64,000 nt of DNA from Candidatus Omnitrophota bacterium (GTDB lineage: Bacteria > Omnitrophota > Omnitrophia > Omnitrophales > Aquincolibacteriaceae): assembly GCA_030698625.1 (NCBI GenBank), contig JAUYMS010000034.1, forward strand, positions 2,835 to 66,834, read 5' to 3'. The notes under the pieces are model-generated. The model was not told the DNA's origin and ran no database searches. It saw only the letters and a list, made by a program, of their open reading frames with translations. Positions 1-24,072 of the stretch are shown here, piece by piece; position 1 is the first letter of the stretch, and every line of letters begins with the position of its first letter. A program made the position numbers and the translations under genes.

Positions 1-3000
1 CAATCTCATAAATTTATTCGTCTTTCGGTTGATCTCCTGGGCTATCATTTCTGGTTCAAATTGGTTACCGGGATCATTCCATGCTGTTGCATCATAGCTG
101 AAATCGTTGTGCCGGGCATTGAGAATTAAAATATTGACGTTTTCAATGCCTCCCGGAGCAGATCCTGTGAACCCAGCCTTTGACCATTCCGAAAGCAAAT
201 TTGTCGGATTAGACGGCGGGCCAAAATCACTTATGACGACAGGTTTTTTACTTGGATCGATACAAGATACCGACCCATTCGTATTGCAACCCGGGATTTG
301 ATTGGCTCGTGTCTCTATAATTTCATTAGGCGCTGTTCCCCAGACATTGATAATACGTTTGAGGTTAGGGTTGTCAATATGATCATTCCAATTCACATTG
401 GGTCCTTCGTAATTGATCACCGTTTGGACATCAAAATAACTTCCGTCATCCCGAGTCTTTTCTAAAGCACCCAAAAGCGGAGCAAAAAATCCAGAATGCG
501 CAAAGGCAATCCCCTTATCCAAAATGCCTTTAGCCTTCTCAAAATCAAGCAGCTTCTTTTTCACTTCTTCTATCAGGTCATTGCCGCCTAAGGCGTTCGC
601 TAATATCGGTAAAACGGACGGTGTAATTCCTAATGCTGCCGTCTTTAAAAGTTCGCTCGCGCTGCTTAGTTTGAAAATAAAGTCTTGAGCCCAATCCAAT
701 ATATTTCCCACGAGTCCCGTTGTCTCATACATAGGAACCAGTAAGGTCTTAGCAATATTGATAATAAAATCTTTAGTCGCTAGATCGCTCACAAACGACG
801 GCATCAGCTTATCCGGCGTGTTTTCAGGAACAATTTCATTGTTGAACCCGTTGCCAAAAACGAATTTTGAAGTATCAGTGGGCGCTGCAACAGTCGTGCT
901 TGCCCCGGGGCGGACTTCAGCGCTGGCGTATGCGACCTTGCCATCAAGTATATTGAACTTGAAGAAAAGATTATCAAAAAGAGTAGGCCTTTGCGGGTCA
1001 AAATCATCAGGAATTTTGATGACAACCGGCGAAGGATTGATTTCCACATCTCCCTGAAAGATTCGACCATCCTCAGTCATCCAAGGCTTCTGATCCTCGG
1101 GACCTTTGACTGTTATTATTGGCGTCCCTTCTATGCCGTAACTCCACCCGGTAAGTTTTCCGTTATCAAAGGTTTGGTTTAGGACTGCTCCCCCACCCAC
1201 AGCAGTTTCATAAGTTAGTTTTTGATAATAAATGCCACCTCCTTCGTCTTGACCTAATCCAGTAATACGGGCGCTTCCGCCAACGCCAAAGGATTCTGTG
1301 GCTTCTCCTGTTTGGGTATTGTAATCAATCCGGCTTGAGCCATTCTGCCAGGTCCAGATGTCCCCATTTTGCGTCACAGTAGCTCCCTTTAATCCTACTT
1401 CATCTTGATAAATTCCTTCTTGAGTCTGACGGCTGAAAATAGATGAGAAAGCGCTCACTGCTTTTTTAAACCCCTGCACCGTGACATTGCCAACCCCTTC
1501 GACCACTTTTTGACCAAAGGAAACGACATTTCCAACAACATTGGCAATCCCTCGTCCGAATTTTTGCAATCCTTCCCCGATCTTCGAGAGAATGCTCTGT
1601 CCCTTGGCTTGAATATCACCCGGGCCCCCACCTCCCGAAGAACCACCTGCTAGGCCAGACGCAATGGAGCCAAGGAAGTTACTGATGAAATTTGTAGCGA
1701 TTGGCGGCGCTCCAAGAGCATCAAGTCCTATGGCCGCACCTACTGAAACAAGGCCCCCCAAGGTTTGGCCACTGGTTAAAGCATCCTTTATCGAATTGAA
1801 GACACTTCCGGCACCAGTTCCATTTGTAAGGCCATTCATCAGACCGCCGACCGAAGCCATCACGGGGATCCCGATGAGTGCTGTAATGCGCCAATCAAGA
1901 CCGAGGGCGTTGCCGGCGGCGGTGACGCCGGCGGAGGCTAGGTCCATCGTAAGATGTGGAAGAGCTGTTTGGAGGCTGGTGAGACCGGCTGCGATGGATT
2001 CGCCGCCGCCGCTAAAACCGCCTCCGAAGGCGGCGAGGCCGGCTGCGCCGATGCTGATCAAATTCGTAGCGAGAGGCGGAAGGCTTGTGTGTAGGTTGAG
2101 CATCTCGGAGGTTCCACCGGACACAAACCCTAAGCTGGCAGCGACGCCAAGGGGGTTGCCGGTCGCGAGGAGACCGATCCCCATCGCAATTTTTCCACCG
2201 GCGATGATTGTGCGGCTGAGTTTAGGTGAAACACCGACTGCTTCCAGCAGGGATCCGGCACCCTGCAGCTCAAGACCGATTAGTGCGAGGTTGAAGCCAG
2301 CGCTGCCAACAAATCCCGAAAGCGCTCCTCCGATAAGCGGAATGCCGTTCAGGAAACCCTGGACAGGTGCCAGGAGAGTTGCGTTGAGGGTTCCCAAAGC
2401 GCTGGCGAGGCCGTATCCAAATTCGATGATTCCGCCGATCACTCCGCCGGCGATCTGTCCAAGACCCGTGAGCACGCCGGCGAAAAGCCCTTGGAGGCCG
2501 GCAAGGAAGTTACCCGTGAAGAGGCCGCCGAAGAAACTGCCGAAGCCTGAGAGGATGGAACCAACGCCTGATATGAGTCCGGTAAGAACAGTGCCGATTG
2601 CTGCAATGGTGGCGCTTACTGCGGCCATGACGGCCTGTGAGATGGCAATGAATGCGATTACAAGCAGCGTGAAGAAGGCGCCGCGCACCGACATTTCTTT
2701 TTCGATGGTGAGCGCGGCGTAAGAGGCCGGATCCGCCTCCGCAGGCGGCGGCCTTTGACTTAACGCATAACCAAAACCTTTGTCGGGGTCGCTCGGGTCA
2801 ACCCAAATCGCGACGAATTCTTCTTTCGTCATCGTGACTTGGTCGAGAGCCTGTTGGGCGCCCGCGCCCGGATCAATATAGGAGATCTCGTCGTCGGTGA
2901 CGCGGGTCACAATGATGTAGTGATTACCGTTGACGTGTGCAACCAGGCGGAAGTCACAGGTGTCGGGATCAGGAGCACAGGTATCGTCGTAAATAGCTTT

Positions 3001-6000
3001 AAGCGCATCGTAGTTCAGCGCAAAGGACTGCGTCTCAAGGCCGTAATGTGCGGCAACAGTGCGCAATGCAAACATCGAGATCACCAGGTCGTCTTTCTCG
3101 AGCGGTGTGATCGTGCCGGTCAGGATGTCGATCAGGATAAGGCGGGAAGCGAGTTCGACGCGCTCGAACTCTAGGCCCGCGCGCGCGAGCATCGCCTCGA
3201 TGGCCAGATAGGCGGACTGTCCGAAGTGAAGCGAGCGGGTACGCACCCAGTCGAGCGCAGCGTTTGCTTCAGCGGCGGACAAGTCGACAACTTGTTCGGG
3301 GAGTAAACCCAAGGCCTCGGCATAAGCCAGTTTTTCGGTGTCGCTGAGCAGGAGATAAGTTAAGAGCTCGGTTTCTACATTATTCTTAATGGTCTGAACC
3401 TCAGCGGTGCGATCTAAGAGTTCCTGCGAAGTCAGCAGGCTCTGCTTCAGTGCTTCGAGATCAAACAGGCCGGTTTCGAAATCAGCGGTGGCGATTACGG
3501 CGGCGTATTCCGCCTGTGAAGGATCGCGGCCCATGATCTTGCGGTACCAGTGGTAGACAACCGGCGTGATTTCCTGCTGTAGGATGTTGCGGCGGGCAAT
3601 CTGGTTCTCGGCCTCAATTTCGGCAAATGAGGCCTCGGCTTCGCTTAGAATTTGCTGCGAGGCTTCGGCCACCTGTGCCGCGAGCTGTTCGAGGGCTGCG
3701 GCCCGCTGGGCGGCAAGCGCTTCGAGTGCCCCGTTCACCTGATCGAGCCCGACCTGAATCTGCGACAGGGCATTCCCTAAAGTACTCTTCCCCTGTTTGC
3801 CGCGCACTTCGATCGAAGCAATCTCGCCGTGCTGCGCTTCGAGCTTGTCGCGAATCGCCAGCAGACGATCGCGCGCCACGACATACTGACCTTCGAGGGT
3901 CTGACTCAGTACCTGTTCGCGTTCGGCCACGCGCGCGAGTGCCTCTTCACGCTCCACCGCGATTTCGGCACGCAGCCGCAGCACCGCGGAATCAAGCCGC
4001 CGCCGCGCCCCGCCCATTTCAATACGGATGGGGTTGCCGTCGGCGTCGTAGGAATAAACCACGAGTTGTTCGCCGTTACCGGCAAGCACCCGATCGATCC
4101 GGCCTTCGTGGTAGGTCTCCAAAACACCCTCGGCATACCTGCGCGTGACCAGTTCGCCGTCAAGCGCGTACTCGCTCTCAATCGGCAGTGTGCCCGGCAA
4201 TCCGAAGTCCTGCCACACGGTAAGAATCTGGTCCTGCCATAGTTTCTCGGCCTCGGCTTGGTGAAACTCGGCCGATTCATTGGGGTTTACGAGATGCCCG
4301 TTTTCGGTGACCAGCCCGACCATATGACCGGCCGCGCCGGTCACCGCATAAGGATTGCCGTCCCTGAATTCGGTGACTGTACCGTCATTGTGAAATACTG
4401 TGGCGTCGAGAAGTATGGACGCGCCGGTTTCGTCTGCTTCGGCGGCATCGAAACTAATCAGTGTGCCGTCGGCGAGCCGCAGGTTCGTAAGCGTGCCGTC
4501 TTCATAGCCGGCCTCTTCACCCTCGGGTCCGGTAAAACCCGTGAGTGTGATCCGATGCACTTCTTCGCCAGCCGGATTATCCACCAGGCTCACCGAAGGC
4601 ACATCCACCGTAAAGGTGGATCCGTCGGGAAGCTCGACAGTCTCGGTCACAGCAACCGTGACGACATCACGGGCCGTTTCGAAACTGTGCGCATAGCGAA
4701 ACCCTTCCGGCGTGATATGAGAAAGGATATTGCCGTCCTCACCGTACTCTTCGCGCACCCCCTGTTCGGTCGTGATGACGCGGTTACCGCCGTCATTGGT
4801 GCTGTGTTCGAAGGTCTGGCGGACGCGGCCTTTGTACACAATGGAAGAACGCAGGAGTGCGCCGTCTTCACCGTACTCATAAACCGTATCCACGCCGGTG
4901 GCCGCGGTGCGTGAGATCAGGCGTTCGGCAAGGTAGCGTTCCGCGAGACCGGTGTCGGGGTCATAAACCACCGTGATTTCTTCGCCGGCATCATTGAATT
5001 CGTAGGAGTATTCAAGTGGGCTTTCGCCGGCACGCGACATTGCGCGCACACGGCCATAGGCAAGGTCGAGTGTTTCAGCGGTGCCATCCTCGCGGGTCAC
5101 GGTCTGCGTCTGGTCGTCAAACTCGATCACGGTGCCGTCGGGCAAGCGGCTCCGGCTCACGCGGCCTGCTTCCATTTGCGAGACGGTGCCGTACAGGGTT
5201 TCAAATTCCTCGGCCTCACCGGCCGTGTCAAAATCAATGCGGGTTTCGGCCGTCAGTAAGCGGCCCCAATCGAAATCCACCTCGCCGTTGGCTTCACTCA
5301 GGCCCAGGTATTGGGCAAGCGTTTCATTGCGGTCGGAGTAGACTTCGGCCAATAAGTCTTCTTGCGTAAGCATACGGTCGAGCCAGTCTTTGACCGCAGG
5401 CGGGCGCGGCGCCGCAAAAGTCACGTTGTCGACATATAAGGGAATGCCGGGGTTTTCACCGGCGGGTTCGAAGGTGATGCGGAGTTCGTCGGCATCGGAT
5501 TTGCCTGCGTCCATCGGCAGGTAATGGTCGGCCCACTCCATGCCGACCGCGTCAATTGTCCACTCCTGGTAGGACTCGGGCTCAGCGGGATCACCGAGCG
5601 TCACTTTCACGCGGCCCTCGGCCGCCCCCACCGGCTGCGCGGCACGGACACTTACGTGCAGGTAATCGTAGAGCGAGCTCTTTACAGAACTGCTCGCGGC
5701 CTGAATACCGCCGATTGCCATGACGCTCGCAGGCAGGAAACCCGATCCGGTGCCGAGTTGCACCCGCCACTCGGTGTCACCCTCGGTATAGAGCACGCGG
5801 TCGGGAATAGCATCGCCGTTTACGTCCGTAAGCTCCGCGACTTTTCTGACATAGGCCGGCGACCGGCCGCCGCCGTTATAGGAGCGAAAATTGCGGTCGT
5901 CCTGGGTAATAGCGGTTTCGCGCGTGCCCGTGCCCTCGATACCGCTCCAGGCTACGGGGTTAGCAAAGCTCGAGCCCGTGTTGACCTCGACCCACCAGGT

Positions 6001-9000
6001 GTCGTGCGTGCCGCCGTCATTGGCATCCACACTCACACGGTCGGGCAGGCCGTCGCCGGTGACATCCATAATATCGATAAGGACATTGCGCGGCTCGTCC
6101 CAACCGAGGAAGGCGCGCACACCGACTGCCGCCACCCCGCCGACTCCGGGCAGGGCACGCACGCTATTGTCCCAGAGCACGGCAGGCTCAAACCCTTTAC
6201 CGTTATTAAACTGCACATACCATTCCTGGACCGCACCGGCATCACCGAGGAAGCTTTCCTTCACGAGCACGCGGTCGAGGCGGCCGTCTCCGTCCATGTC
6301 GACCAAGTCGGAGACGTCAGCAACTAACTCCCCTTGCGCCGTGCTCTGCCGTTCGTACCACGAGAGTGACCCGGCAATTTCAGGGTCATTGTGAAAAGTC
6401 ATATCGACACCGGTCCACAAGATGGCACTGTCGAAACCGTCGCCTGTATTGTGTTGGTAGAACCAGTGGCTGAACGGCTGCACCGCAGGCCTGACAATGC
6501 GATCGGCAAGGCCGTCACCATCGATGTCGACGAGGTCACTCAAAAGCTCCTGCACATCTTTGCCGTCGTCACGCACCTCGAGCGCATAGGCCGCCTGAAA
6601 GCTCCACTGACTCGCGGGCTGAGCGTTCTCCGCCCACACTTCGAGCGGATCAAAACCGCTCCCGTTGTTGTATTGCACGTACCAGGTCTGCTCGCCTAAG
6701 AACTTCTGCACCACGCGGTCGGGCAGGCCGTCTCCGTTCATGTCGGCGAGGTCGCCGAGCACATGCGGGTGCCGGCCTTCGAAGAAACGCAGAGCGCCCA
6801 TCGTATGGGCATTGCAGCAGACTTCATTGCCGTAATCCTGGTCCACACCGGTCCAGCGCACGGGGCTGTCAAAGCCGTTGCCGTTGTTGTACTGAATCCA
6901 CCAAAACCCCATATTGGCGGTCACATCGATAAAGACGTGGTCTTTCAAGCCATCGCCGTTCATGTCGATGAGGTCGGCCGTCTGGGCAGGCAGGTTATCG
7001 TGCACATCCATCGTATGATTGCGGCCGATATAACCGAAACTGTTGACCGGGTTATTGAGAGAGACGCCGGTCCACTCCGGATCGTATTCCCCCGCAAATT
7101 CATACACGGTTTCGCGATCAGTGTCGCTCACGAGTTTTGAGACGAGCAGTGTCGTGCCGCCGTCGAGTTCGGATGAGACGGCAAGCGGGTCGGCGAGTGC
7201 GTCATGCGCCGGGCGTGCCAGCAGAATCTCAGAGAGTTCGGGATCGGTCAGCGGTTCGGGGCGTTCGTAAGACGGGTCCAGAAAGTGAAGCAAATATTGT
7301 GTGTCACCGTCGCGCTCATACTCTTCGACGCCAGGCGTAAAACCGGTGTTCCAACGTGCCGTCCGAGAAACACGGAACTCATCCATTCGCCCCTGCATGG
7401 AATAGGCGCCGCCGTGAAGACCGCCGACACTCAAACCGCCGCTCGCACCGCTCACGTTGCGGGCAAACTCTACAGCCGCGCCGATTTGTGCGCCATCGAC
7501 AAAAGCCTTCAACTGGCCGCTCTGTCTGACAAGTGCAATGTGATACCAGCGATTGACTTGAGGGGCCCAGGTAAAATTCCGGACGCTTCCGTCTATCCAC
7601 ACTTCGAGCGATTGTCCTGCCGCGGCCGCAGCCCTCATGCCGGTGCCGCCCGAACTCCCGAGTTGAAAGAAGCCGACCGAAGATTCGCCAGGAAAATTAT
7701 CGGACTGCATCCAGAAGTCGACCGTGAAATCCCCTGTTCCGATGAGCCAGGATGCTGGTTCAGGCACCGACAGAATATCCCCGCCCGCGTTGAAGCGCAT
7801 TGAGGCATGCCCGGTCTTAAAATTGTTGGTATCGATGGTGCTTGTGCCCTGCATGGAATAGCTGTCGTCACGCGGCGCAACACCGAGCACGGCCGTGGCC
7901 GGATCAAGTAGATAAGGCACGAGGGAGTGACTCGTGCCGCCGTCAAAAGTGCGTATAAGCTGCATGCCGGCGAGAGAGCCGTCGGCAGCGTCTTCATAAG
8001 AAAGATCATAACGACGGCCTTCGATTTCTACACCGCTGACGCGCCCTTCCGCGTAGAGCACTGCCGTGCCGTCGGCACGCACGGTCTTGGTGAGAACTCC
8101 CTGTTCGATCGTCTGCTGTGTCGCATCGGCAAAGGTGAGGGTACCTGATAAAATGCCTTCCGCATCGAAGCCGGGATTTTCGACCTCACCAAAGCGGGTA
8201 TAGAGCTGCGAAACTTCACCGTCGGTCATTTCGGCATGAACACCGTCTGTTAGAACGCGCAGAAGCGTGCCGGCCGGCGTGTAGGCGCGGAAGGCATGCT
8301 CTCCTTTAAATTGAATCTCCTGAAGTCCGCCGGCCTCGCCGCGCAGGTAAGACACTGTCTGCTCGCTTGCATCCGGCAGCACAATGCGCTCGGCCATGCC
8401 TTCGCGTCCATAATAAATTTGAGCACCGTCGCTTGTGGTCAAGCGGACCAAAGTTCCATTTTCATAAACCTTCACGATGCCGTCGGATGTTTCTTCTGTC
8501 ACCGTCGCCACCGCACCATTATCGAAGCCGATCGTGTGCAGACGCGACCCGTCGGGGAACAGGATCTCGCTGATTGCACCGCCGCCATAAACAACGTGCG
8601 TGCCGTCGCGAAAATGCCACTCGCGCAGAAGGGCTTGATCGTTGGCGAAGTCATAGATCTTGCCGTCTACGGTTTCAAAACCCGTCATCACACCGTTCTC
8701 GATGGTTTGCTTGATCCCCTCCTTTGTCTCGATAATGCCGCTGATAATATTGCCGTCTTCATCCAACTCGAAATTGCTCAATTGGTTTCCTCCGACAGTC
8801 TCGAGCAGCAAGTCCACCACGGCCTCGTCGTTCAGCATGCCGTCGCCGTCGGTGTCTTCGGCCAAGCGCCGCACCGTGCCGCCGCTCGTGACAATCGACT
8901 CGAGAAAACCGGAATCATCGTAGACAAAGTCTGTGCCGTCGCGGTTAACGGTGAGCCCCTTCATGAAGGACAACTCCTCCGCATAGGAGTAGCCGGCCGT

Positions 9001-12000
9001 TTCCGCACCGGTTTCATCCAACGCCCGAAGTACTCTGCCGTCGTCGAACTCAATTACCGAGCCGTCTTCCAGGACCGTTTTCAATACACTGCCGTCGGCG
9101 GCATAATCCGCCGCGGTCATGCTCTTGGCTTCAGGAGCACTCGAGACGGCCCGGTCGAGGCTCAGGGTGTAACCGTTTTCTGCAGCAATGCGGTTGTAGA
9201 TAAAGTGGGCGCCGGCGGCGTCCTCGACTTCACGCATGATTCCGAGCTTATCGTATTTGACGGAGTCGCCGGCCGCCGTAAAGATGCGTGTCGCGGCTAT
9301 TTCGGTTTGCGAAAGCTTCTCCACTGAGTGGTATTCCGTGATATCGGCCAGGATCTCGCGCACGACGAATGCCGCGGGAGTAAAATCCATAATGCCGCCG
9401 TCTGCGGCGATGCGCCTGAGCAGAGCCCCCTCGCGGATCACATCCAAAGAGCGGTCGGGGTACCGAATTAAAGCATCCACAATCTCGTTATTTTCGTTCA
9501 GCGTAAAATCCGTGATGCGTATACCGGTTTCCGTGCGCATTTCAACCAGCTGACCCGCCGCATAAAAGGCTTCGATGCCGTCTTCAAGTGTCAGGCGCAG
9601 GGCCTCGTCCTCGTTCAGCGCTGAAGCCTCCGGCAACGTAAGCGTTTCTACCAAACTGCCTCCGGCAGCCAGGCGCCTGACCACGCCGGTCGTGTCGTCA
9701 TAGTGAATCTCACGCCCATCGGCGTACCGATAAAACGCCGTGCTGCCGTCGGCGCGGTAAATCACCTCATCGCCGGCCGGCGTGATTTCGCGCACAAGAA
9801 CATCACTTTTGTAATAGAGTTCCGTTCCGTCGGCCAGCATGAAGACTTCATCCGGCGACTCCTTCTGCCGCACGATGATCTTATCGACGTAAAGATTCCT
9901 GTCGCCGTTGGTGCAGCAGTAGTCATTTGTGAAGGCAACGGCGAATTTGCGGTTACCGGCAACGAGCTCCACATCAAAAAGATAAGAATTCCATGATGTG
10001 ACAGCCACCGGATCAGGACCGGCAATCGTTTGGTTGTCGATCTTCAGCGACATGAGCGGCCAAACACCGCCACCCTGCTGGCCCCTCGCAATGACTTCGA
10101 TTTCGTATCCGCTCGTCTCCGGTATGTTACGCGTGGCATAAACCTCACCATTCGACCAAACATTCCAACCACCCGAAGCCGGTCCGCCCGTGGTCTTCCC
10201 CATATTCTCAGCCTCTAAAGTGAGGAGGAAGGGGTAGGGAGCGGACACAACGTCCGCTCCCGAGGGGGTGTACGTGGGATCGTCGGTGAGATAAAGAGAG
10301 TCGAGAAATGTGCCGTCCTCACGCTGATAAATACGGATCGTGTGCTCCCCCGCTGAAAGCACGGGTTTAAATAGACCGGCACTCCTGTCCTTGACCTGAG
10401 CCCATTCCCATGCGGTATGCGTTCCCGTGTCCCAAAGCTGAACGGGTCCGTTGTCGATCTGCACATAGAAGCTGTCGTCATCACCGCTCGGGCTCAGCGT
10501 GCGTCCCCAGAGGTAATAGGTGCCGTCCCACGGTACGGTGGTGTTGAACGTGACACTCTTATTGATGTCGGGGCTCTTAAGAAACACCCCGCCGTTCGCA
10601 ACGCCGATGTAACTGCCTGCGCTGGCATACCAGTCTTCGTAGACGGCGAAAGGACTCGCAATCGATGCGGCATTCTCGGCTTCAAGGACAATCGGCACTT
10701 CGGCTTCAATGGGCTCATAGGCCACCGCGAAAGATGCCGTCGTCTCGTTGCCGGCCGCGTCCGTCTCCGTCACCGTCAATGTGTTTGAGCCCTCGGTCAG
10801 CGTGAAATCCTTCGCTTTATCCGCGCCGTCGGCCGTATAGGTCAGCGTATAGGCCGCACGCACTGACGTTTGAGCTGAGGTAAATACAATCGCCGGCGCC
10901 GTTGAGTCGAACGTGGTCTCGACCACCACAGCCGTGCTTTCGTTTCCGCTGTCGTCTCTGGCCGTGATCGAAAAGGAGTAGAGCTTTTCTTCCGTGAGGG
11001 TCACGGCGTACGACCATGTCGTGCCTGCACTAACGGCCACAGCCTCCGCGCCGTTGATCCAAATGCCGGTGCCGGCGGCTTTGGTGCCCGCGAGGGTGAC
11101 TGTGCCGGCGTTGGTGAATGTCGGAATGTCCTCCACGGTAGGCGGCGCAATCGTTGTCACTAAATCCACTGTCACACTGCCGGTCAAAACCGTTTCATTG
11201 CCGGCCGCGTCTACTTCATCGATTCTGAGTTCGTTAATCCCCTGCACTAGATTCTCAAAGGCCTTTGTCTTGGAGATGCCGTCAACCGTATATTCCACAG
11301 TCAACGAATCTATGGTAATGACAGGGGCAGGGCCTCCCAAGCCATCGCCGGAAGCCACGGATTGAATCTCTTCGGCTGAGAGTCCGCGCTCAAAGACCCG
11401 AACATCATCCATCAGGCCGCGGAAATAATAGCTCGAAGGGCGGTCGACCCATCCGTTCAGATTGTCGTAGCCGATCCGCCAATACCCCGGGTAGTTTTCC
11501 GCCGTCTTCACCGCCGCGTTTTCAGCTGCCAAAGTGCCGTCCATGTATAACTGCATCCCGTCCGCAGAAAGAGTTGCCGCCACGTGATGCCAGGCGCCAT
11601 CATTGTAGGAATTTACAGTCTTAATCGTTTTGACGGTGCCCGGGTAGACCCCGAAATAGAGCTGGCCGGCATTGTTCATGTAAATGTGCCGGTCATAGCT
11701 AGTACTTGTGCCCGTCTGTGATCTGCCGAACCCTATCAGCTTCCCGCCCGTCGCAGAGCCTGTCTTAAACCAAAGCGAAAGACTGAATTCACTTGGATTC
11801 GTAAATGCGGTTGTAGTCGAAACATAATCATTGATGCCGTCAAAATTCAAGCTGCCGCTGTTCGGGAGGATCACATTGGGATGGTCAGGGTTTGAAGCGG
11901 GCCCGTTCATCAATTGCCCGTCATTACCCGAACCCGACTGATCCGTCACCGTGCCTCCGCTCACATCATCAAAACTCCAATATCCGGTCTGACCTTCGAG

Positions 12001-13818
12001 CGAGGTTGTTCCCTGGAAGAATACTGAGTCCGTCACAATCTTGGGCGCGATCGTATCCAGGACCACGGTGTAACTCACCGTAGTCGTGTTGCCGGCGGCA
12101 TCCGTGCCCGTCGCCGTCAACGGATTCGCGCCCTCGACTAAGGTGTACGACTTTGTCTTAGCCGCCCCATCCACCGTATAAATCAACATATAATTCGCGT
12201 CATTCGTCAATGCGGCTGAGGTGATTGCAACGACCGGCGCGGTTTGATCGAGTGTCGTCTCGACCACCACAGCCGTGCTTTCGTTTCCGCTGTCGTCTCT
12301 GGCCGCGATCGAAAAGGAGTAGAGCTTTTCTTCCGTGAGGGTTAGGGTGTGTGACCAGGTCGTGGCCGTACTGACGGCTTCGGCCTCGGCTCCGTTAATC
12401 CAAATGCCGGTGCCGGCGGCTTTGGTGCCCGCGAGGGTGACGGTGCCGGCGTTGGTGAATTCAGGAACAACCTCCACCGTAGGAGGAACGACTGCCGGTG
12501 CCGCATTAAGAACGCGCACAGAAAAATTGTCGAACACCCTCCCATAGACATCCGCATAGATGCCGACTTTGCCGGTAAGATACGGGGCGGTATCTTCGAA
12601 TTCCGTTTTCAGGACATCATCAAAATAAACCTTGAAGTGTCCTCCCTCGACACTCGCTGTGATTTTGTGCCAGGCCGCTGAAACCGTACCGACCGAGAAA
12701 GAATGGATGGCGGCCACGCCGTCCGGGACTGATTTTTGGATCGTTCCCCGGCCCCACTCATCCACCGTCACATAATAATATTGGCGTGCGTCCGTGTACC
12801 TAAGGAGCAGCCCTCGTCTTGTCAGGCCGCCGCCGAAGTAACTCGACACCGACGCCTCATAATCGTTACCGGCCAAGGTTGGGTTAAGCGTCACACCCCC
12901 GTCATGCACCGGATAGCTGTTATAACCGTACAGCTCCGTCCCGTTGCGAACGGCATAATTGCCGCGAACCACCGCCCAGTCAGTCCCGAGCGAGGCACGG
13001 TCAAAGTTGTCGGTAAACTCAACCAACTCGCTGGCCCGATAGGATTCTGTAGCAGAAACCTGCCCGCTGTTAATCAGATCCGTTTCCCGAATGAACTCAT
13101 TCAGCAAGGCTCGCGCTTCAACCTGCGAGGGCTCCCGCACGCGATCCTCCCGCACCGCCTGCCTCAACGCACTCAGATAGTCCTCAGGCTCGACTCGGGC
13201 GACCTCGCCGCCTGCACGATAGCCGTAAATGCCGGCGTCGCTAATGACGTATTCCGTAAACTCTAAGGCTGAAGAGCGGTCGAGTGCGCTGGGGCCGGAA
13301 TCGTGGAAATCGTGGGGATGCGTGTGCGAAACAAAGCTTGCCTGATTCAATAAGTTGAGGGGGGGATCACCAACACGGATCTCATCCCGATTACCAGAAC
13401 TAAAGAGAATGATCTCCCCTTTCAAAACGGCGATGCCGACCTCAAAGGACAGATCGGTTAACCGATCGATATCGTCGGCGGTCAGGCGGTCGACAACCAC
13501 AGCGACGGCATAATCGGGGCGCAGTTCCTCGGCGGCCGTTTCAAAATTAATGCGCGCAAGGTCTCCTTCTTCCTCGGCTTCTTCTTGTTCGAGTACTTCC
13601 GAGAGAGGACTGTTGTCTGAGAGAAAATCTGTGGATGTGCGGGGCTCACGCGGCTTTTCAACCTCAAGGGCGGCGCGGGCATCTTCAACTGCCCCGGATA
13701 GCGGCGTTAGCGGGAGGGAACCGACCTCATGAAGCTCGGCAGACATTCCGATCTGCGTCGTCAGAAATGTAATCACCGTAATAACCGCGATAACCTTTAT
13801 TTTTTCTCCGTGTCTCAT
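1..13818 (-). CDS. Giant secreted Rhs/teneurin/Tc-toxin-like mosaic protein (>4605 aa in window; 3' end and stop codon lie beyond the left window edge). Domain order: signal peptide, JAB-like motif, jelly-roll/LamG lectin-like domains, Ig-like repeats, 2x CBM-like, YD-like repeats, FG-GAP propeller, YD-like repeats, coiled coil, C39-like fold, Gly-rich hydrophobic region, C-terminal domain
   Basis: Manual translation of the minus strand from ATG at 13818..13816 (MRHGEKIKVIAVITVITFLTTQIGMSA... hydrophobic signal-like N-terminus). In-frame stop upstream at 13852-13854 bounds the ORF. The ORF track lists no minus-strand ORF >=60 aa in this frame anywhere in 1..13818, consistent with a frame that never reaches a stop inside the window. 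Recognisable motifs: LamG (SLWFKTG...DDVRVFERGLSAEEI), FG-GAP-like DLxDMNGDGLPDRV...YxNNGxGF repeated 6x, many xDGxxxxYxYD YD-like repeats, LEAEN...GGW CBM-like modules. The whole frame was read by eye; an undetected frameshift cannot be excluded. Confidence 0.7.
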   Translation of the reverse strand, partial: MRHGEKIKVIAVITVITFLTTQIGMSAELHEVGSLPLTPLSGAVEDARAALEVEKPREPRTSTDFLSDNSPLSEVLEQEEAEEEGDLARINFETAAEELRPDYAVAVVVDRLTADDIDRLTDLSFEVGIAVLKGEIILFSSGNRDEIRVGDPPLNLLNQASFVSHTHPHDFHDSGPSALDRSSALEFTEYVISDAGIYGYRAGGEVARVEPEDYLSALRQAVREDRVREPSQVEARALLNEFIRETDLINSGQVSATESYRASELVEFTDNFDRASLGTDWAVVRGNYAVRNGTELYGYNSYPVHDGGVTLNPTLAGNDYEASVSSYFGGGLTRRGLLLRYTDARQYYYVTVDEWGRGTIQKSVPDGVAAIHSFSVGTVSAAWHKITASVEGGHFKVYFDDVLKTEFEDTAPYLTGKVGIYADVYGRVFDNFSVRVLNAAPAVVPPTVEVVPEFTNAGTVTLAGTKAAGTGIWINGAEAEAVSTATTWSHTLTLTEEKLYSFSIAARDDSGNESTAVVVETTLDQTAPVVAITSAALTNDANYMLIYTVDGAAKTKSYTLVEGANPLTATGTDAAGNTTTVSYTVVLDTIAPKIVTDSVFFQGTTSLEGQTGYWSFDDVSGGTVTDQSGSGNDGQLMNGPASNPDHPNVILPNSGSLNFDGINDYVSTTTAFTNPSEFSLSLWFKTGSATGGKLIGFGRSQTGTSTSYDRHIYMNNAGQLYFGVYPGTVKTIKTVNSYNDGAWHHVAATLSADGMQLYMDGTLAAENAAVKTAENYPGYWRIGYDNLNGWVDRPSSYYFRGLMDDVRVFERGLSAEEIQSVASGDGLGGPAPVITIDSLTVEYTVDGISKTKAFENLVQGINELRIDEVDAAGNETVLTGSVTVDLVTTIAPPTVEDIPTFTNAGTVTLAGTKAAGTGIWINGAEAVAVSAGTTWSYAVTLTEEKLYSFSITARDDSGNESTAVVVETTFDSTAPAIVFTSAQTSVRAAYTLTYTADGADKAKDFTLTEGSNTLTVTETDAAGNETTASFAVAYEPIEAEVPIVLEAENAASIASPFAVYEDWYASAGSYIGVANGGVFLKSPDINKSVTFNTTVPWDGTYYLWGRTLSPSGDDDSFYVQIDNGPVQLWDTGTHTAWEWAQVKDRSAGLFKPVLSAGEHTIRIYQREDGTFLDSLYLTDDPTYTPSGADVVSAPYPFLLTLEAENMGKTTGGPASGGWNVWSNGEVYATRNIPETSGYEIEVIARGQQGGGVWPLMSLKIDNQTIAGPDPVAVTSWNSYLFDVELVAGNRKFAVAFTNDYCCTNGDRNLYVDKIIVRQKESPDEVFMLADGTELYYKSDVLVREITPAGDEVIYRADGSTAFYRYADGREIHYDDTTGVVRRLAAGGSLVETLTLPEASALNEDEALRLTLEDGIEAFYAAGQLVEMRTETGIRITDFTLNENNEIVDALIRYPDRSLDVIREGALLRRIAADGGIMDFTPAAFVVREILADITEYHSVEKLSQTEIAATRIFTAAGDSVKYDKLGIMREVEDAAGAHFIYNRIAAENGYTLSLDRAVSSAPEAKSMTAADYAADGSVLKTVLEDGSVIEFDDGRVLRALDETGAETAGYSYAEELSFMKGLTVNRDGTDFVYDDSGFLESIVTSGGTVRRLAEDTDGDGMLNDEAVVDLLLETVGGNQLSNFELDEDGNIISGIIETKEGIKQTIENGVMTGFETVDGKIYDFANDQALLREWHFRDGTHVVYGGGAISEILFPDGSRLHTIGFDNGAVATVTEETSDGIVKVYENGTLVRLTTSDGAQIYYGREGMAERIVLPDASEQTVSYLRGEAGGLQEIQFKGEHAFRAYTPAGTLLRVLTDGVHAEMTDGEVSQLYTRFGEVENPGFDAEGILSGTLTFADATQQTIEQGVLTKTVRADGTAVLYAEGRVSGVEIEGRRYDLSYEDAADGSLAGMQLIRTFDGGTSHSLVPYLLDPATAVLGVAPRDDSYSMQGTSTIDTNNFKTGHASMRFNAGGDILSVPEPASWLIGTGDFTVDFWMQSDNFPGESSVGFFQLGSSGGTGMRAAAAAGQSLEVWIDGSVRNFTWAPQVNRWYHIALVRQSGQLKAFVDGAQIGAAVEFARNVSGASGGLSVGGLHGGAYSMQGRMDEFRVSRTARWNTGFTPGVEEYERDGDTQYLLHFLDPSYERPEPLTDPELSEILLARPAHDALADPLAVSSELDGGTTLLVSKLVSDTDRETVYEFAGEYDPEWTGVSLNNPVNSFGYIGRNHTMDVHDNLPAQTADLIDMNGDGLKDHVFIDVTANMGFWWIQYNNGNGFDSPVRWTGVDQDYGNEVCCNAHTMGALRFFEGRHPHVLGDLADMNGDGLPDRVVQKFLGEQTWYVQYNNGSGFDPLEVWAENAQPASQWSFQAAYALEVRDDGKDVQELLSDLVDIDGDGLADRIVRPAVQPFSHWFYQHNTGDGFDSAILWTGVDMTFHNDPEIAGSLSWYERQSTAQGELVADVSDLVDMDGDGRLDRVLVKESFLGDAGAVQEWYVQFNNGKGFEPAVLWDNSVRALPGVGGVAAVGVRAFLGWDEPRNVLIDIMDVTGDGLPDRVSVDANDGGTHDTWWVEVNTGSSFANPVAWSGIEGTGTRETAITQDDRNFRSYNGGGRSPAYVRKVAELTDVNGDAIPDRVLYTEGDTEWRVQLGTGSGFLPASVMAIGGIQAASSSVKSSLYDYLHVSVRAAQPVGAAEGRVKVTLGDPAEPESYQEWTIDAVGMEWADHYLPMDAGKSDADELRITFEPAGENPGIPLYVDNVTFAAPRPPAVKDWLDRMLTQEDLLAEVYSDRNETLAQYLGLSEANGEVDFDWGRLLTAETRIDFDTAGEAEEFETLYGTVSQMEAGRVSRSRLPDGTVIEFDDQTQTVTREDGTAETLDLAYGRVRAMSRAGESPLEYSYEFNDAGEEITVVYDPDTGLAERYLAERLISRTAATGVDTVYEYGEDGALLRSSIVYKGRVRQTFEHSTNDGGNRVITTEQGVREEYGEDGNILSHITPEGFRYAHSFETARDVVTVAVTETVELPDGSTFTVDVPSVSLVDNPAGEEVHRITLTGFTGPEGEEAGYEDGTLTNLRLADGTLISFDAAEADETGASILLDATVFHNDGTVTEFRDGNPYAVTGAAGHMVGLVTENGHLVNPNESAEFHQAEAEKLWQDQILTVWQDFGLPGTLPIESEYALDGELVTRRYAEGVLETYHEGRIDRVLAGNGEQLVVYSYDADGNPIRIEMGGARRRLDSAVLRLRAEIAVEREEALARVAEREQVLSQTLEGQYVVARDRLLAIRDKLEAQHGEIASIEVRGKQGKSTLGNALSQIQVGLDQVNGALEALAAQRAAALEQLAAQVAEASQQILSEAEASFAEIEAENQIARRNILQQEITPVVYHWYRKIMGRDPSQAEYAAVIATADFETGLFDLEALKQSLLTSQELLDRTAEVQTIKNNVETELLTYLLLSDTEKLAYAEALGLLPEQVVDLSAAEANAALDWVRTRSLHFGQSAYLAIEAMLARAGLEFERVELASRLILIDILTGTITPLEKDDLVISMFALRTVAAHYGLETQSFALNYDALKAIYDDTCAPDPDTCDFRLVAHVNGNHYIIVTRVTDDEISYIDPGAGAQQALDQVTMTKEEFVAIWVDPSDPDKGFGYALSQRPPPAEADPASYAALTIEKEMSVRGAFFTLLVIAFIAISQAVMAAVSATIAAIGTVLTGLISGVGSILSGFGSFFGGLFTGNFLAGLQGLFAGVLTGLGQIAGGVIGGIIEFGYGLASALGTLNATLLAPVQGFLNGIPLIGGALSGFVGSAGFNLALIGLELQGAGSLLEAVGVSPKLSRTIIAGGKIAMGIGLLATGNPLGVAASLGFVSGGTSEMLNLHTSLPPLATNLISIGAAGLAAFGGGFSGGGESIAAGLTSLQTALPHLTMDLASAGVTAAGNALGLDWRITALIGIPVMASVGGLMNGLTNGTGAGSVFNSIKDALTSGQTLGGLVSVGAAIGLDALGAPPIATNFISNFLGSIASGLAGGSSGGGGPGDIQAKGQSILSKIGEGLQKFGRGIANVVGNVVSFGQKVVEGVGNVTVQGFKKAVSAFSSIFSRQTQEGIYQDEVGLKGATVTQNGDIWTWQNGSSRIDYNTQTGEATESFGVGGSARITGLGQDEGGGIYYQKLTYETAVGGGAVLNQTFDNGKLTGWSYGIEGTPIITVKGPEDQKPWMTEDGRIFQGDVEINPSPVVIKIPDDFDPQRPTLFDNLFFKFNILDGKVAYASAEVRPGASTTVAAPTDTSKFVFGNGFNNEIVPENTPDKLMPSFVSDLATKDFIINIAKTLLVPMYETTGLVGNILDWAQDFIFKLSSASELLKTAALGITPSVLPILANALGGNDLIEEVKKKLLDFEKAKGILDKGIAFAHSGFFAPLLGALEKTRDDGSYFDVQTVINYEGPNVNWNDHIDNPNLKRIINVWGTAPNEIIETRANQIPGCNTNGSVSCIDPSKKPVVISDFGPPSNPTNLLSEWSKAGFTGSAPGGIENVNILILNARHNDFSYDATAWNDPGNQFEPEMIAQEINRKTNKFMRL
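1640..2700 (-). other. ~330-aa Gly/Ala/Leu-rich hydrophobic region (glycine-zipper-like, predicted membrane-inserting) near C-terminus of gene A
   Basis: Translation ...AVSATIAAIGTVLTGLISGVGSILSGFGSFFGGLFTGNFLAGLQGLFAGVLTGLGQIAGGVIGGIIEFGYGLASALG...GGSSGGGGPG shows continuous small-xxx-small (GxxxG/AxxxG) periodicity across ~1 kb. Confidence 0.55.
2820..3350 (-). other. C39-like papain-fold domain with Ser in the catalytic-Cys position (or divergent RHS-core-like region)
   Basis: LHFGQSAYLAIEAMLARAG (Q...S-AYLA.EAML where C39 peptidases have Q...CGxAALxMxL) ... RLVAHVNGNHYIIVTRVTDDEISYIDPGAG (H-containing HYVVV strand followed by DP). Also contains the ISYIDPG...VDPSDPDKGFG DP-rich stretch. 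Confidence 0.3.
4300..5350 (-). other. YD/RHS-like repeat block 2 of gene A
   Basis: GTVIEFDDQTQTVTRDGTTETLDLAYGRVRAMSRAGESPLEYSYEFNDAGEEITVVYDPDTGLAERYLAERL...VYEYGEDGALLRSSIVYKGRVRQTFEH...YSYDADGNPIRIE. Confidence 0.4.
5770..7000 (-). other. Six FG-GAP/VCBS-like repeats (predicted beta-propeller) in gene A
   Basis: DLIDMNGDGLKDHVF...WWIQYNNGNGFDSPVRW; DLADMNGDGLPDRVV...WYVQYNNGSGFDPLEVW; DLVDIDGDGLADRIV...WFYQHNTGDGFDSAILW; DLVDMDGDGRLDRVL...WYVQFNNGKGFEPAVLW; DIMDVTGDGLPDRVS...WWVEVNTGSSFANPVAW; LTDVNGDAIPDRVL...WRVQLGTGSGFLPASV. This is the Ca-binding DxDxDG plus aromatic-Gly pattern of integrin-alpha/TcB-type propeller blades. Confidence 0.55.
7370..7760 (-). other. LamG/concanavalin-like domain 2 of gene A
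   Basis: GDFTVDFWMQSDNFPGESSVGFFQLG...GQSLEVWIDGSVRNFTWAPQVNRWYHIALVRQSGQLKAFVDGAQIGAAVEF...GRMDEFRVSRTARW. Confidence 0.5.
8000..9880 (-). other. YD/RHS-like repeat block 1 of gene A
   Basis: Repeated ~20-aa units of form xDGxxxxYxYDxxGxLxxV (DGSVIEFDDGRVLRALDETG, DGTDFVYDDSGFLESIVTSGG, DGKIYDFANDQALLREWHFRDGTHVVY, TSDGAQIYYGREGMAERIVLPD, ...). Confidence 0.45.
9880..10690 (-). other. Two tandem CBM6/CBM35-like carbohydrate-binding modules in gene A
   Basis: Both modules open with LEAEN (VLEAENAASIASPFAVYEDWYASAGSYIGVANGG...IDNGPVQLWD and LTLEAENMGKTTGGPASGGWNVWSNGEVYAT...LKIDNQTIAG), the common start of CBM35/CBM6-type modules. Family assignment is tentative. Confidence 0.4.
10905..11165 (-). 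repeat. Intragenic near-identical repeat copy 2 (Ig-like domain coding)
   Basis: See partner 12250..12510; spacing ~1344 bp, an in-frame multiple of 3. Confidence 0.8.
11380..11850 (-). other. LamG/concanavalin A-like lectin domain 1 of gene A
   Basis: SEFSLSLWFKTGSATGGKLIGFGRSQTGTSTSYDRHIYMNNAGQLYFGVYPGTVKTIKTVNSYNDGAWHHVAATLSADGMQLYMDGTLAAENAAVKTAENYPGYWRIGYDNLNGWVDRPSSYYFRGLMDDVRVFERGLSAEEIQSV is a classic laminin-G/pentraxin-like pattern (SLWxK...W.HVA.T......LY.DG........F.G.IDDVR.F.R.LS..EI). Confidence 0.55.
12250..12510 (-). repeat. Intragenic near-identical repeat copy 1 (Ig-like/BIG-type domain coding; partner at 10905..11165)
   Basis: ~260 nt at 12252-12505 is ~90% identical to 10908-11160 (gaccaccacagccgtgctttcgtttccgctgtcgtctctggcc...gatccaaatgccggtgccggcggctttggtgcccgcgagggtgac). 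Both copies encode ...TNAGTVTLAGTKAAGTGIWINGAEA.AVS..TTWS..TLTEEKLYSFSI.ARDDSGNESTAVVVETT.D.TAP. Confidence 0.8.
12530..13100 (-). other. Concanavalin/DUF1080-like jelly-roll domain in gene A
   Basis: Ends with GKVGIYADVYGRVFDNFSVRV, resembling the C-terminal GxIGLQ..V.FRNI strand of DUF1080/GH16-like lectin folds. Confidence 0.3.
13285..13330 (-). other. JAB/MPN-like metal-binding motif (HTHPHDFHDSGPSALD, HxH-x7-S-xx-D pattern) near N-terminus of gene A
   Basis: Translated minus strand: QASFVSHTHPHDFHDSGPSALD. HPH-x7-S-xx-D matches the JAMM HxHx7Sx2D spacing, and an acidic residue lies upstream (GNRDEIRVGDPP). Motif-level only. Confidence 0.3.
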
Positions 13819-13999: not shown

Positions 14000-14767
14000 T
14001 TATTCTTTGGGTTTAACGCGTCTTTTGCGCCATGCTCCAAGGCCGGCAAGTGCACTTCCGAGAAGCACCATGCTCGAGGGCTCGGGAACATTTGTGCTGC
14101 CGCCCGACGGCGTCGGCGATTGAACCACCTGCCCGACGCTACCGACCGTGAAGTCGTCGAAACCAAAGAAGTCAACGCCTGCAGCGGTGTTACCAAACTG
14201 CACCTCGCTAAAGAGGTTTTGAGTGTCTATCACAGCAAAATAGAGAACTCCCCCGCCTGTTACGTTGGTGGAGTTCGGAACGGTGATGACTTGGGTGGTT
14301 CCGTTCAAAAGGGTGAGCTGTACCTGCCCGCCGAAGTCACCGATATCGGTGGCGAAGAAGCCGAAGGCCGCCACGGGATCGGACAAAAGGATTGAAAATG
14401 AACTGCCGGTCTCAAAATAGTTGTCGCCGGAGATCGGAAACCGGCCGACTCCGTTGGTACCGGATGATACGGTCTGAACAGAACCCGTTCCCTGCAGGGT
14501 CGCCGTCACACCGGCCCCCGGGAAGTTGATTACGAGCGGGGTTCCGGTATTGTCTGCAAATCCCTCGAAATCTTCGGTGCCGGGGCTGATAAGGTTACTC
14601 AAGAATGAAGCCTGTGCCGCATCGGCATTGGGATGACTGGTCTGACGCGTCCCTTCTCCGATACCGGCGTCCTCGCCGAAGAAGGTCTGCGGAACAGCGT
14701 AAGCGCCTGTTGCCAAACTGAGCACCGCGACGAATACCGCTACTGCAACAAACAGGGAGCGCTTCAT
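14000..14767 (-). CDS. PEP-CTERM sorting-domain secreted protein
   Basis: ORF track 14000..14830. Preferred start is ATG at 14767, preceded by AGGAGA with 7-nt spacing. That start gives signal peptide MKRSLFVAVAVFVAVLSLATGAYA. The C-terminus VPEPSSMVLLGSALAGLGAWRKRRVKPKE is a textbook PEP-CTERM anchor (VPEP, TM helix, basic tail). Confidence 0.8.
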   Translation of the reverse strand: MKRSLFVAVAVFVAVLSLATGAYAVPQTFFGEDAGIGEGTRQTSHPNADAAQASFLSNLISPGTEDFEGFADNTGTPLVINFPGAGVTATLQGTGSVQTVSSGTNGVGRFPISGDNYFETGSSFSILLSDPVAAFGFFATDIGDFGGQVQLTLLNGTTQVITVPNSTNVTGGGVLYFAVIDTQNLFSEVQFGNTAAGVDFFGFDDFTVGSVGQVVQSPTPSGGSTNVPEPSSMVLLGSALAGLGAWRKRRVKPKE

Positions 14768-15018
14768 TAGTGAATCTCCTAGTAAATTGAATATTTGTCG
14801 GTTACTAAAATGACGCTTATAACACAGCAACTCCTATGCCAGAAGCACCTACCCCATGAAGTTCAAAAAATTTTGCTTTAACGCATTTAACAGTCGTCTG
14901 TTAGGAGGTTATCCACAGACACACATACCCGATATGTCACAGACACACCGGGACATGCCTTGATATAGCGTCTATGGATGTGAACAATGTGAGGAATTCT
15001 CGATATAGAGACGGAAAA

Positions 15019-16884: not shown

Positions 16885-16889
16885 GCCGG

Positions 16890-17933
16890 TTATTCCTCAG
16901 GGGGTGCGTCATTAGGAACCACGGGATCGGGTTCCGGATCTTCCTCTTCGTCAGTAACAACAGCGCCGGTATCAAGCTGAGGATCGAGTCCTGCGCCGGT
17001 ACCCCCGCCGAGATCATTCTGGAAGAACTCGCCATTTCCTGCCGGCGGCTCAGAATTATTTTCCTGACGCTTTTGTGCAACGTCTTCGAGAATGTCCTGA
17101 ATCTGATCAAGCCAGAAAGGATCAATCACAGCCAAGAGAGACTCATCCGGGGATTGACCAAAATCCAAGTCGATCTGAAAACCCTCGGGCACACTCACGG
17201 CCGACCCTTCCTCGCCTTCCAGATAGACCGCGATAGAGCTAGGGTCCTCGCCTTCGTCCGGGACATCCACCGCCGCGGCAACAAACTCGCCGTTACTGGC
17301 GGTGTAGTTGACAAAATACGTGGTTCCGCGCACGGCAGCCACTGCGGTCGGTGTGGTCACCTTCCAGTTGGCATTCTTACCGAGTCCGTCGAAGACATTG
17401 TAAAGCGTGCCGTCCTCGAGAAAAATATCCGTCGGCTCAATCGCGCGAAAAACCGCACGTGTGTTGCCCGGCACCGTGACGATATTGAGGAAACTTTCAT
17501 CGAAGGCAATCTGGACGCGAGCACCTTCGCTCGTGAGCACGATATCCCCTTCCTGAATATAGCTGCCGGCTCTGAGTTTTTGCCAGTCATCAGAGCCCTC
17601 GCGCGCTATCTTGGCGCGTCCCTGTACTTCGTAAATTTTGGCCTGCTTGTCCTGTTTGCTCGCAGCAATAATCTCCGGCGTAGCCGCGATACGGCCCAGC
17701 GAGGGATCCGCAAATACCGCAGACAAAGGGTTCGGAAGCATCCCCGCAACACCCGCCTGACCCGTCGGCGGCAACACCCCCTGCATTCCGCCGTCACCGA
17801 GCAAGGCCTGGTCCACAGATACGTCGCGGCTTGAGGCCGACTCGGCCGCATGCGCCGGAAATGACACAAGACCTACCCCCACGATCACGAGAATAAGGCC
17901 CACGGCCATTTCAAAACGTATTGCTGTTTTCAT
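16890..17933 (-). CDS. FecR-domain protein (periplasmic, acidic Pro/Glu/Asp-rich C-terminal tail)
   Basis: ORF track 16890..17972. Preferred start is ATG at 17933 with GGAGG 6 nt upstream, giving signal peptide MKTAIRFEMAVGLILVIVGVGLVSFPAHA. FecR-like core: GSYIQEGDIVLTSEGARVQIAFDESFLNIVTVPGNTRAVFRAIE...KVTTPTAVAAVRGTTYFVNY. Confidence 0.7.
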   Translation of the reverse strand: MKTAIRFEMAVGLILVIVGVGLVSFPAHAAESASSRDVSVDQALLGDGGMQGVLPPTGQAGVAGMLPNPLSAVFADPSLGRIAATPEIIAASKQDKQAKIYEVQGRAKIAREGSDDWQKLRAGSYIQEGDIVLTSEGARVQIAFDESFLNIVTVPGNTRAVFRAIEPTDIFLEDGTLYNVFDGLGKNANWKVTTPTAVAAVRGTTYFVNYTASNGEFVAAAVDVPDEGEDPSSIAVYLEGEEGSAVSVPEGFQIDLDFGQSPDESLLAVIDPFWLDQIQDILEDVAQKRQENNSEPPAGNGEFFQNDLGGGTGAGLDPQLDTGAVVTDEEEDPEPDPVVPNDAPPEE

Positions 17934-17968
17934 AACAACCTCCGAAAAGATTTTTTTATACTCATCCG

Positions 17969-20529: not shown

Positions 20530-20540
20530 GGATCGGGCCC

Positions 20541-24037: not shown

Positions 24038-24072
24038 ATCCCACAGTTTAACGCCAAAATACCTCTTTATCT

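Follow-up and report, generated by a model that had tools for sequence, protein, structure and literature searches.

The window analysed here, a stretch of 64,000 nucleotides (nt) from a Candidatus Omnitrophota bacterium (GenBank assembly GCA_030698625.1, contig JAUYMS010000034.1, positions 2,835 to 66,834), begins with a giant gene on its minus strand. The gene encodes a mosaic of lectin-like modules, divergent YD/Rhs repeats and a predicted C-terminal hydrolase, and its product is considered as a candidate contact-acting effector. Translation from ATG 13818 to position 1 yields 4,606 codons without any stop, and the nearest in-frame stop lies about 25 codons upstream of the start. Because no stop falls inside the window, the gene is missing from the list of open reading frames (ORFs). 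An earlier sequence-only reading had described this continuous frame as running off the window and hidden from the ORF track, and re-translation of 1..13818 in search of an internal stop found the frame open throughout. The overhang, however, is small. Homologous ORFs in three related loci (L001, L002 and L005) terminate 44 codons past the last residue encoded in the window, and the gene is therefore probably nearly complete, with about 135 nt missing to the left of position 1 and a full product of about 4,650 amino acids (aa). One of these loci, L002, is a 384-kb contig of a metagenome-assembled genome (MAG) and encodes a protein about 50% identical to the giant protein over aa 1305-4605. With full-length homologues and an open frame too long to arise by chance, the gene is confirmed as real. 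Protein P0030, exactly 4,606 aa long, was considered as a special match and set aside, being just 41% identical to the giant protein and equal in length by coincidence.

Run SRR13727534, assembled independently by Logan, yields a contig that matches window 12,412-33,288 with 100% identity and spans the first 469 codons of the gene. It stops at nt 12,412, within one copy (12,078-12,486) of a 410-nt direct repeat whose other copy, 79% identical, lies at 10737-11145; the two encode Ig-like modules at aa 445-581 and aa 892-1028, respectively. Since this assembly breaks off within a repeat copy, the segment between the copies, which carries the first laminin G (LamG) domain, is the part most at risk of mis-assembly.

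Table 1. Features of the giant gene and its product in window coordinates
Feature	Residues (aa)	Position (nt)	Strand	Basis or remark
Giant coding sequence (CDS)		1..13818	-	4,606 codons in window; stop predicted ~135 nt left of position 1
Sec-type signal peptide or signal anchor	1-27	13738..13818	-	hydrophobic segment aa 6-28; read from sequence
Conserved domain with JAMM/JAB-like motif	~120-215	13174..13461	-	conserved in 15 family members; motif only
Lectin-like jelly-roll 1	~265-437	12508..13026	-	weak sub-threshold Glyco_hydro_59_C and 3keto-disac_hyd matches
Ig-like repeats (Big_13/Glucodextran_B) around Laminin_G_3 domain 1	608-823 (Laminin_G_3)	10714..12486	-	Pfam; PDB 4qvs, E 8.6e-14
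Two carbohydrate-binding-type modules, weak GH115_C-like, then CBM60	1240-1320 (CBM60)	9859..10701	-	CBM60 51-53 bits
YD-repeat block 1	1325-1975	7894..9846	-	HHalign against block 2 family
Laminin_G_3 domain 2	~2010-2160	7339..7791	-	Pfam 65.5 bits
FG-GAP/VCBS-type beta-propeller, ~6 blades with DxNGDGxxD loops	~2260-2700	5719..7041	-	FG-GAP_3 32.3 bits
Small beta module (jelly-roll 2)	2700-2815	5374..5721	-	kept with propeller in 18 relatives
YD-repeat block 2	2815-3275	3994..5376	-	profile matches; ends in invariant ...YDxxGNPxRIxMxGxRRRL
Coiled coil and helical linker	3275-3420 and 3420-3530	3229..3996	-	kept in 41 and 56 relatives; coiled coil read from sequence
C39-fold peptidase-like domain	3524-3690	2749..3249	-	Peptidase_C39 PF03412; putative triad Ser3535, His3633, Asp3649
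Glycine-rich hydrophobic region	3700-4080	1579..2721	-	20% Gly, 24 GxxxG, 21 charged residues in 381
Beta-rich module	4080-4300	919..1581	-	kept in 39 relatives; beta strands predicted, low confidence
Alpha/beta-hydrolase tip (predicted)	4300-4606, plus ~44 beyond window	1..921	-	invariant Ser4442, His4570; structure model
Composition and similarity breakpoint		1870..1930		left: GC3 ~0.43, 80-98% nucleotide identity to lower-GC lineages; right: GC3 ~0.65, 40-67%

Modules of the giant protein

The N-terminal residues MRHGEKIK-VIAVITVITFLTT-QIGMSA/E have the features of a Sec-type signal peptide, which accords with the prior suggestion that the product is secreted. Right after it comes the motif E...GE...SHTHP-x9-S-xx-D of a JAMM/JAB-like domain, which has no Pfam match and is recognised by no profile; such a metallopeptidase-like domain is unusual for a secreted protein. 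Pfam recovered two LamG domains, CBM60, Ig-like repeats and FG-GAP at or near threshold. The sequence-only reading had placed two LamG domains, a jelly-roll, two modules resembling carbohydrate-binding modules (CBMs) and Ig-like repeats at the N-terminus, with CBM_35 as the profile to check. LamG, the Ig-like repeats and one CBM bear this out, whereas the jelly-roll and the second CBM have weak matches only, the second LamG domain lies after YD block 1, and the CBM family matched is CBM60, not CBM_35. When the modules were laid onto 152 retrieved relatives, LamG1, CBM60 and jelly-roll 1 proved nearly unique to the window protein, occurring in one or two relatives each. The conserved core comprises YD block 1 (42 relatives), YD block 2 (49), the coiled coil (41), the linker (56), the C39-like domain (65) and the glycine-rich region (68).

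The regular expression YxYDxxG picks up few repeats in the giant protein, and because the repeats are highly divergent, profile methods were needed to recognise them. Against Pfam RHS_repeat (PF05593) the window copy scores 13-17 bits (17.3 for block 2), below the cutoff of 22, whereas its block 2 exceeds the cutoff of NCBIfam YD_repeat_2x (TIGR01643; 19.7 against 15.8 bits). At the level of the block 2 family, 14 of 15 members pass both models (best E 3e-16 and 6e-12), and the family profile has a single match in the PDB, the Rhs toxin Tse5 (E 1.3e-3). Block 1 aligns with the block 2 family in several registers (HHalign probability 98.3%, E 2e-14), and the orthologue's block 1 reaches 21.7 bits with RHS_repeat. 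By these comparisons, both blocks are divergent YD/Rhs repeats, clear at family level; the profile test proposed for the window copy itself gives a mixed result, and the envisaged layout of an FG-GAP propeller between two YD blocks is upheld by the profile, HHalign and FG-GAP_3 matches. An invariant basic motif, G-x-R-R-R-L (aa 3272-3275, window 3994-4005, minus strand), ends block 2 at the boundary with the coiled coil and may be a processing site. The second LamG domain, the propeller and the following beta module, for which Pfam has no family match, form an insertion found in 18 relatives, against the 42 and 49 with YD blocks 1 and 2, and the propeller is therefore not part of the core design.

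Several hallmarks of Rhs, Tc and teneurin proteins are missing. The Rhs cleavage motif is DP(I/L)GxxGG-x5-Y-x8-D(P/S)xG(L/W) (PMC11461821). A DPxG...DPxG aspartyl autoproteolysis site had been anticipated, but DPxG occurs nowhere in the window protein, and the full motif and the Rhs-associated core are absent from the 52 relatives of at least 2,000 aa. NCBIfam gives no Rhs_assc_core match in the window protein, and profile scans of it detected no SpvB, TcdB_toxin_midC, PAAR or VgrG. Pfam scans of the whole protein and its segments returned no teneurin EGF repeats, NHL propeller or Tox-GHH/ABD C-terminus, and no TcA-like gene lies at window 14,000-29,800. The proposed parallel with TcB-TcC, teneurin and Rhs toxins is borne out only in part. 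The region beyond the YD array, about 1,380 aa, is several times the size of known caged cargos and looks too large for cargo inside an Rhs cage.

After the coiled coil and linker, a C39-like domain matches PF03412 at 25.3-31.8 bits (cutoff 22; profile positions 45-121), with orthologues at 29-33 bits. The canonical Cys-His-Asp triad is not present, as Ser stands at the nucleophile position, in the register that we take to be that of the catalytic Cys of PCAT1. Across 56 aligned family members this position holds Ser in 53, Cys in two and Asn in one, while all 56 keep the His and carry Asp or Glu at the acidic position. Such conservation argues for an active Ser/Cys-His-acid peptidase rather than a degenerate C39-like domain. 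Pfam finds no ABC transporter domain in the giant protein, and the C39-like domain is internal rather than the N-terminus of an exporter; a sequence search of the PDB with this region found nothing. All eight Cys residues among the 4,606 aa fall into four local pairs, at aa 1301/1302, 2334/2335, 3614/3621 and 4511/4519 (CC, CC, Cx6C and Cx7C), and those of the C39-like domain and the tip are kept in the orthologue. This pairing is consistent with disulfides and suggests that the two domains are exposed to an oxidising compartment outside the cytoplasm.

The glycine-rich region that follows has its hydrophobicity peak at aa 3708-3760. A link between this region and the CdiA pre-toxin domain DUF637 was rejected, the matches being sub-threshold and confined to three of 38 members (best E 0.0033). 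Modelling the C-terminal 527 aa from seven sequences gave a predicted local distance difference test score (pLDDT) of 42, whereas a model of the tip alone from a 40-sequence alignment reached pLDDT 82.4 and a predicted template modelling score of 0.83. In the latter, Ser143 (aa 4442) sits between strand 137-142 and helix 143-153, and His271 (aa 4570) comes right after the last core strand (260-266). The 101 tips collected with iterated profiles share invariant Ser, Gly, Gly, Asn and His; the elbow reads AHSGF in the window protein and GYSGG in many relatives, and many tips carry GT(E/D)D after the preceding strand, where the window subfamily has GTAPNE. Over 40-101 sequences, Ser4442 is conserved in 100%, His4570 in 99-100% and Asp4572 (of HxD) in about 87-90%. 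Neither Pfam nor NCBIfam recognises the tip, their alpha/beta-hydrolase families included (hints to DUF726 and DUF3089 have E>0.09), and a sequence search of the PDB with the tip profile found nothing. On the strength of the confident model and the invariant residues, the tip is predicted to be an alpha/beta-hydrolase of lipase/esterase-like fold with an intact Ser-His pair.

Family, partner gene and mosaic 3' end

The C-terminal module, used as a profile in an exhaustive search, returned 232 relatives, about 60 of them 1,000-5,300 aa and 52 at least 2,000 aa long, and at 50% identity the family of proteins of 3-5 thousand aa (kaa) falls into at least 50 sequence clusters. The stop codon of the tip is seen in nine related loci, and in each of them it is directly followed by a gene whose product has 140-190 aa, at a distance of at most a few nt where measured and about 60 nt in L010. 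In eight of them (L001, L002 and L004-L009) this partner has an N-terminal transmembrane helix and tetratricopeptide (TPR) repeats; in L010 a divergent partner adjoins a divergent tip. Two apparent stand-alone cassettes, P0003 and P0006, were discarded, as their contigs show pieces of giant genes split by a stop or frameshift or by runs of N. Distant pairs of tip and TPR protein (35-37% identity) were also observed as short ORFs beside phage-integrase-family genes in L006 (3364-5941) and L008 (7125-8992).

The 3' end of the giant gene differs from the rest in composition and ancestry. The GC content at third codon positions (GC3) is 0.60-0.72 over codons 1 to about 4000 and 0.38-0.50 over the last ~600 codons. 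Compared with L012 (51% GC), nucleotide identity climbs from 0.4-0.67 to 0.8-0.95 at about aa 3,975, a step that coincides with the GC3 switch and lies inside the CDS, at the motif GLDWRITALIG (conserved as GLD(P/W)RI). The low-GC part is 77-97% identical at the nucleotide level to L001, a 45%-GC Omnitrophica MAG, against about 41% just upstream, and 98% identical to L005. These lineages have lower GC (44-51%) and differing trunks. In L005 (Ga0209541_10105007, 122-2794), the last 166 codons of the tip, 98% identical to window 1-498, stand together with the TPR partner between two IS200-like (Y1_Tnp) transposase genes. Foreign GC3 combined with high identity to lineages with different trunks points to an exchanged unit, and the simplest reading is that the final ~1.9-2 kb would be a cassette passed horizontally among Omnitrophota lineages.

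Function and competing explanations

The template described by Zhang et al. (2012; PMC3482391) arranges trafficking elements, RHS repeats, a pre-toxin part, a releasing peptidase and a toxin in this order, with an immunity gene, and includes C39-like papain peptidases (Tox-PL-C39) and lipase-like tips (Tox-ABhydrolase-1/2/3). The giant protein shows the same part order, with a papain-fold peptidase before a lipase-like tip and a small adjacent gene. It departs from the template in the Ser nucleophile, in a hydrolase that has no Pfam relationship, in the membrane-anchored TPR partner and in tips that mostly belong to one family. On account of this fit in part order, the reading favoured here is that of a Sec-exported, contact-acting, polymorphic-toxin-like effector of about 4,650 aa with non-canonical parts, for which we estimate a probability of about 0.5. 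The LamG, Ig-like and CBM60 modules found at the N-terminus would bind glycans on the surface of another cell, and the roughly 1,100 aa of YD/Rhs repeats, interrupted by LamG, the FG-GAP propeller and a jelly-roll, would make up a trunk or shell. The Ser-type C39-fold peptidase behind the coiled coil, whose candidate catalytic residues are in place, would stand in for the Rhs aspartyl protease and most likely cut the protein, freeing the C-terminal ~950 aa. The glycine-zipper-rich region of 380 aa might then insert into a membrane and move the tip across or along it, where the tip, by its modelled fold and residues (Ser4442-His4570), would attack an ester-linked envelope component, probably a lipid. 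The inner-membrane-anchored TPR protein would serve the producer as an immunity or holding factor, and the final ~1.9 kb would move between Omnitrophota lineages by recombination near GLD(P/W)RI.

A number of observations weigh against this proposal. No part of the protein is more conserved than the tip (83-92% identical, against about 50% elsewhere), and of the 61 tips of long proteins that were compared, counting that of the window, 46 fall into one superfamily, whereas polymorphic toxins are defined by the diversity of their tips. The C-terminal payload expected by the sequence-only reading is borne out as a distinct enzymatic module. No dedicated secretion or translocation partner, such as a type VI secretion system (T6SS), TcA or TpsB, lies nearby; the partner gene falls outside the window, where it is expected to the left of position 1, and the TPR protein could equally be a chaperone. 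An alpha/beta-hydrolase fold alone does not fix the substrate. Moreover, the combination of a signal peptide with a transmembrane region, read as secreted and membrane-anchored, occurs in 39% of long Omnitrophota proteins, so that the hydrophobic region may be no more than an anchor in the producer. This last point, together with the conserved rather than polymorphic tip and the lack of delivery machinery, speaks for a resident surface apparatus, the main alternative, which is less probable than the effector but deserves serious weight. Its signal peptide would export the large N-terminal part, the glycine-rich region would anchor it permanently in the producer membrane, and the lectin, YD and propeller part would be an adhesin or spacer towards a host or prey. 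The hydrolase would then work where it sits, at the contact site, perhaps as an esterase or deacylase of envelope polymers, with the TPR protein as assembly factor or chaperone. Such a role also agrees with the proposal of adhesion and cell-wall digestion by West-Roberts et al. However, a conserved and apparently active peptidase before the hydrophobic region, together with a linked partner, is more typical of processed toxins with immunity, and the horizontal mobility of the tip cassette, with a remnant beside transposases, is typical of conflict modules. The glycine-zipper-rich stretch, 380 aa long, is also unlike a simple anchor.

Very unlikely, in our view, is a canonical Rhs, TcB-TcC or teneurin cocoon, in which a YD shell would surround a payload, set free by aspartyl autoproteolysis and delivered by injection with a partner's help. 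The YD repeats are genuine and the propeller lies between their blocks as in TcB, and the TcdB_toxin_midN profile scores 25.7 bits with the window copy and 33.4 bits with the orthologue. Yet this match covers only about 25 residues on a Ca-binding loop, the cleavage motif and the core, SpvB, midC, PAAR, VgrG and TcA components are lacking as described above, the region beyond the YD array is long, and the propeller was detected in only 18 of the retrieved relatives. A different kind of explanation is that the tip is not the real C-terminus of the 56%-GC organism's protein because window nt 1 to about 1,900 come from a co-occurring lower-GC relative through a metagenome mis-join. The abrupt fall in GC3 and the jump in identity to lower-GC contigs do occur at one place, near the window end, and the independent assembly stops short of the junction. 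The reading frame and the family's domain order nevertheless continue through it. Upstream of it the sampled lower-GC lineages are only 40-67% similar, so that a false join would have had little identical sequence to work with, and like mosaicism is seen in lineages from separate assemblies (L001 and L012). We therefore regard a mis-join as unlikely, and even if there were one, the true gene should close with a homologous module, as its relatives do.

Against known systems, the effector reading finds its closest parallels in Rhs/YD polymorphic toxins (Tse5, Tse15 and the Sec-dependent WapA type), which share the YD/RHS profile matches, the repeat trunk followed by a C-terminal enzyme, the small gene right after it and evidence of recombination at the 3' end. 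The giant protein differs from them in lacking the Rhs core, aspartyl motif, PAAR, VgrG and clade domain, in having a coiled coil, C39 fold, glycine-rich region and beta module between repeats and tip, in its conserved tip and in a size about three times that of typical Rhs proteins. TcB-TcC cocoons resemble it in the beta-propeller inside the YD array and the local TcdB_toxin_midN match, but it has no SpvB, midC, Rhs core or nearby TcA, the propeller is optional in its family, and a C-terminal region of this size could hardly be a caged cargo. Type VI lipase effectors (Tle) and their periplasmic Tli immunity proteins likewise combine a GxSxG-type alpha/beta-hydrolase, extracytoplasmic action (predicted for the giant protein) and a small envelope partner; they are not known to resemble the tip in sequence and depend on a T6SS, which is absent here, where a giant Sec-exported protein carries the hydrolase at its C-terminal end. 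Omnitrophota proteins of at least 10 kaa and at least 30 kaa have been reported by West-Roberts et al. (2023; Archaeovorin and Dockerin types) and Nielsen & Lui (2026; a PF03412 cluster). They share with the giant protein the phylum, a signal peptide with a C-terminal transmembrane region, a C39-like domain, RHS-reminiscent beta repeats, lectin and CBM modules and a proposed role at contact with other cells. The present protein is shorter (~4.65 kaa), Pfam scans found no dockerin, TSP3 or SecA-DEAD in it, and its YD repeats are bona fide by profile; no hydrolase tip, TPR partner or cassette exchange is described in the passages of those reports that were consulted.

In the literature searched, neither an Omnitrophota YD-repeat toxin nor this architecture is described. 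The building blocks are all known. New are the way they are combined, the replacement of Cys by Ser in the C39 fold, a hydrolase family that no profile recognises, together with its TPR partner, and a mosaicism whose direction puts a conserved cassette on trunks that diverge. It is a tentative and rather doubtful extension of these results that they define a phylum-associated class of Sec-dependent Rhs-like weapons, with a Ser-type C39 release peptidase and a mobile cassette of glycine zipper, beta module and lipase with a TPR immunity gene that sweeps through Omnitrophota with divergent trunks; such a class could be a membrane-lysing device of predatory or episymbiotic nanobacteria. Omnitrophota are abundant, uncultured and ultra-small and are thought to be predators or episymbionts, and published work has focused on their proteins of more than 10-30 kaa. 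The present family is tractable and offers candidate catalytic residues (Ser-His in the tip, Ser-His-Asp in the C39 fold) and a dedicated partner gene. It suggests that a trunk of YD repeats need not go with the Rhs aspartyl protease but can have a different, putative release system, and that what moves between lineages is the 3' cassette rather than the trunk. If the toxin reading is true, candidate pairs of lytic effector and immunity protein become available from a phylum without a genetic system; if the anchored adhesin is, the enzymatic end of a contact apparatus has been identified.

Neighbouring genes

The neighbours of the giant gene are ordinary: they encode PEP-CTERM proteins, a CHASE2-SpoIIE phosphatase, FecR-like and TPR proteins, RecN, an amidase, a fused transaldolase and glucose-6-phosphate isomerase, and a two-component system. 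The PEP-CTERM (exosortase-sorted) proteins are encoded at 14000-14830 and 20541-21236 on the minus strand, upstream of the giant gene, and together with the CHASE2-SpoIIE, FecR-like and TPR genes they may represent an envelope-sorting and signalling neighbourhood. Further along the window, on the same strand, a second long ORF at 29814-63965 encodes 11,383 aa; phmmer searches with all 18 modules of the giant gene gave no match to it, and the two share no module. The fused transaldolase/glucose-6-phosphate isomerase gene (24073-27117, minus strand) has an uncertain start codon, its longest ORF being 1,014 aa and the public call, with a later start, 948 aa.

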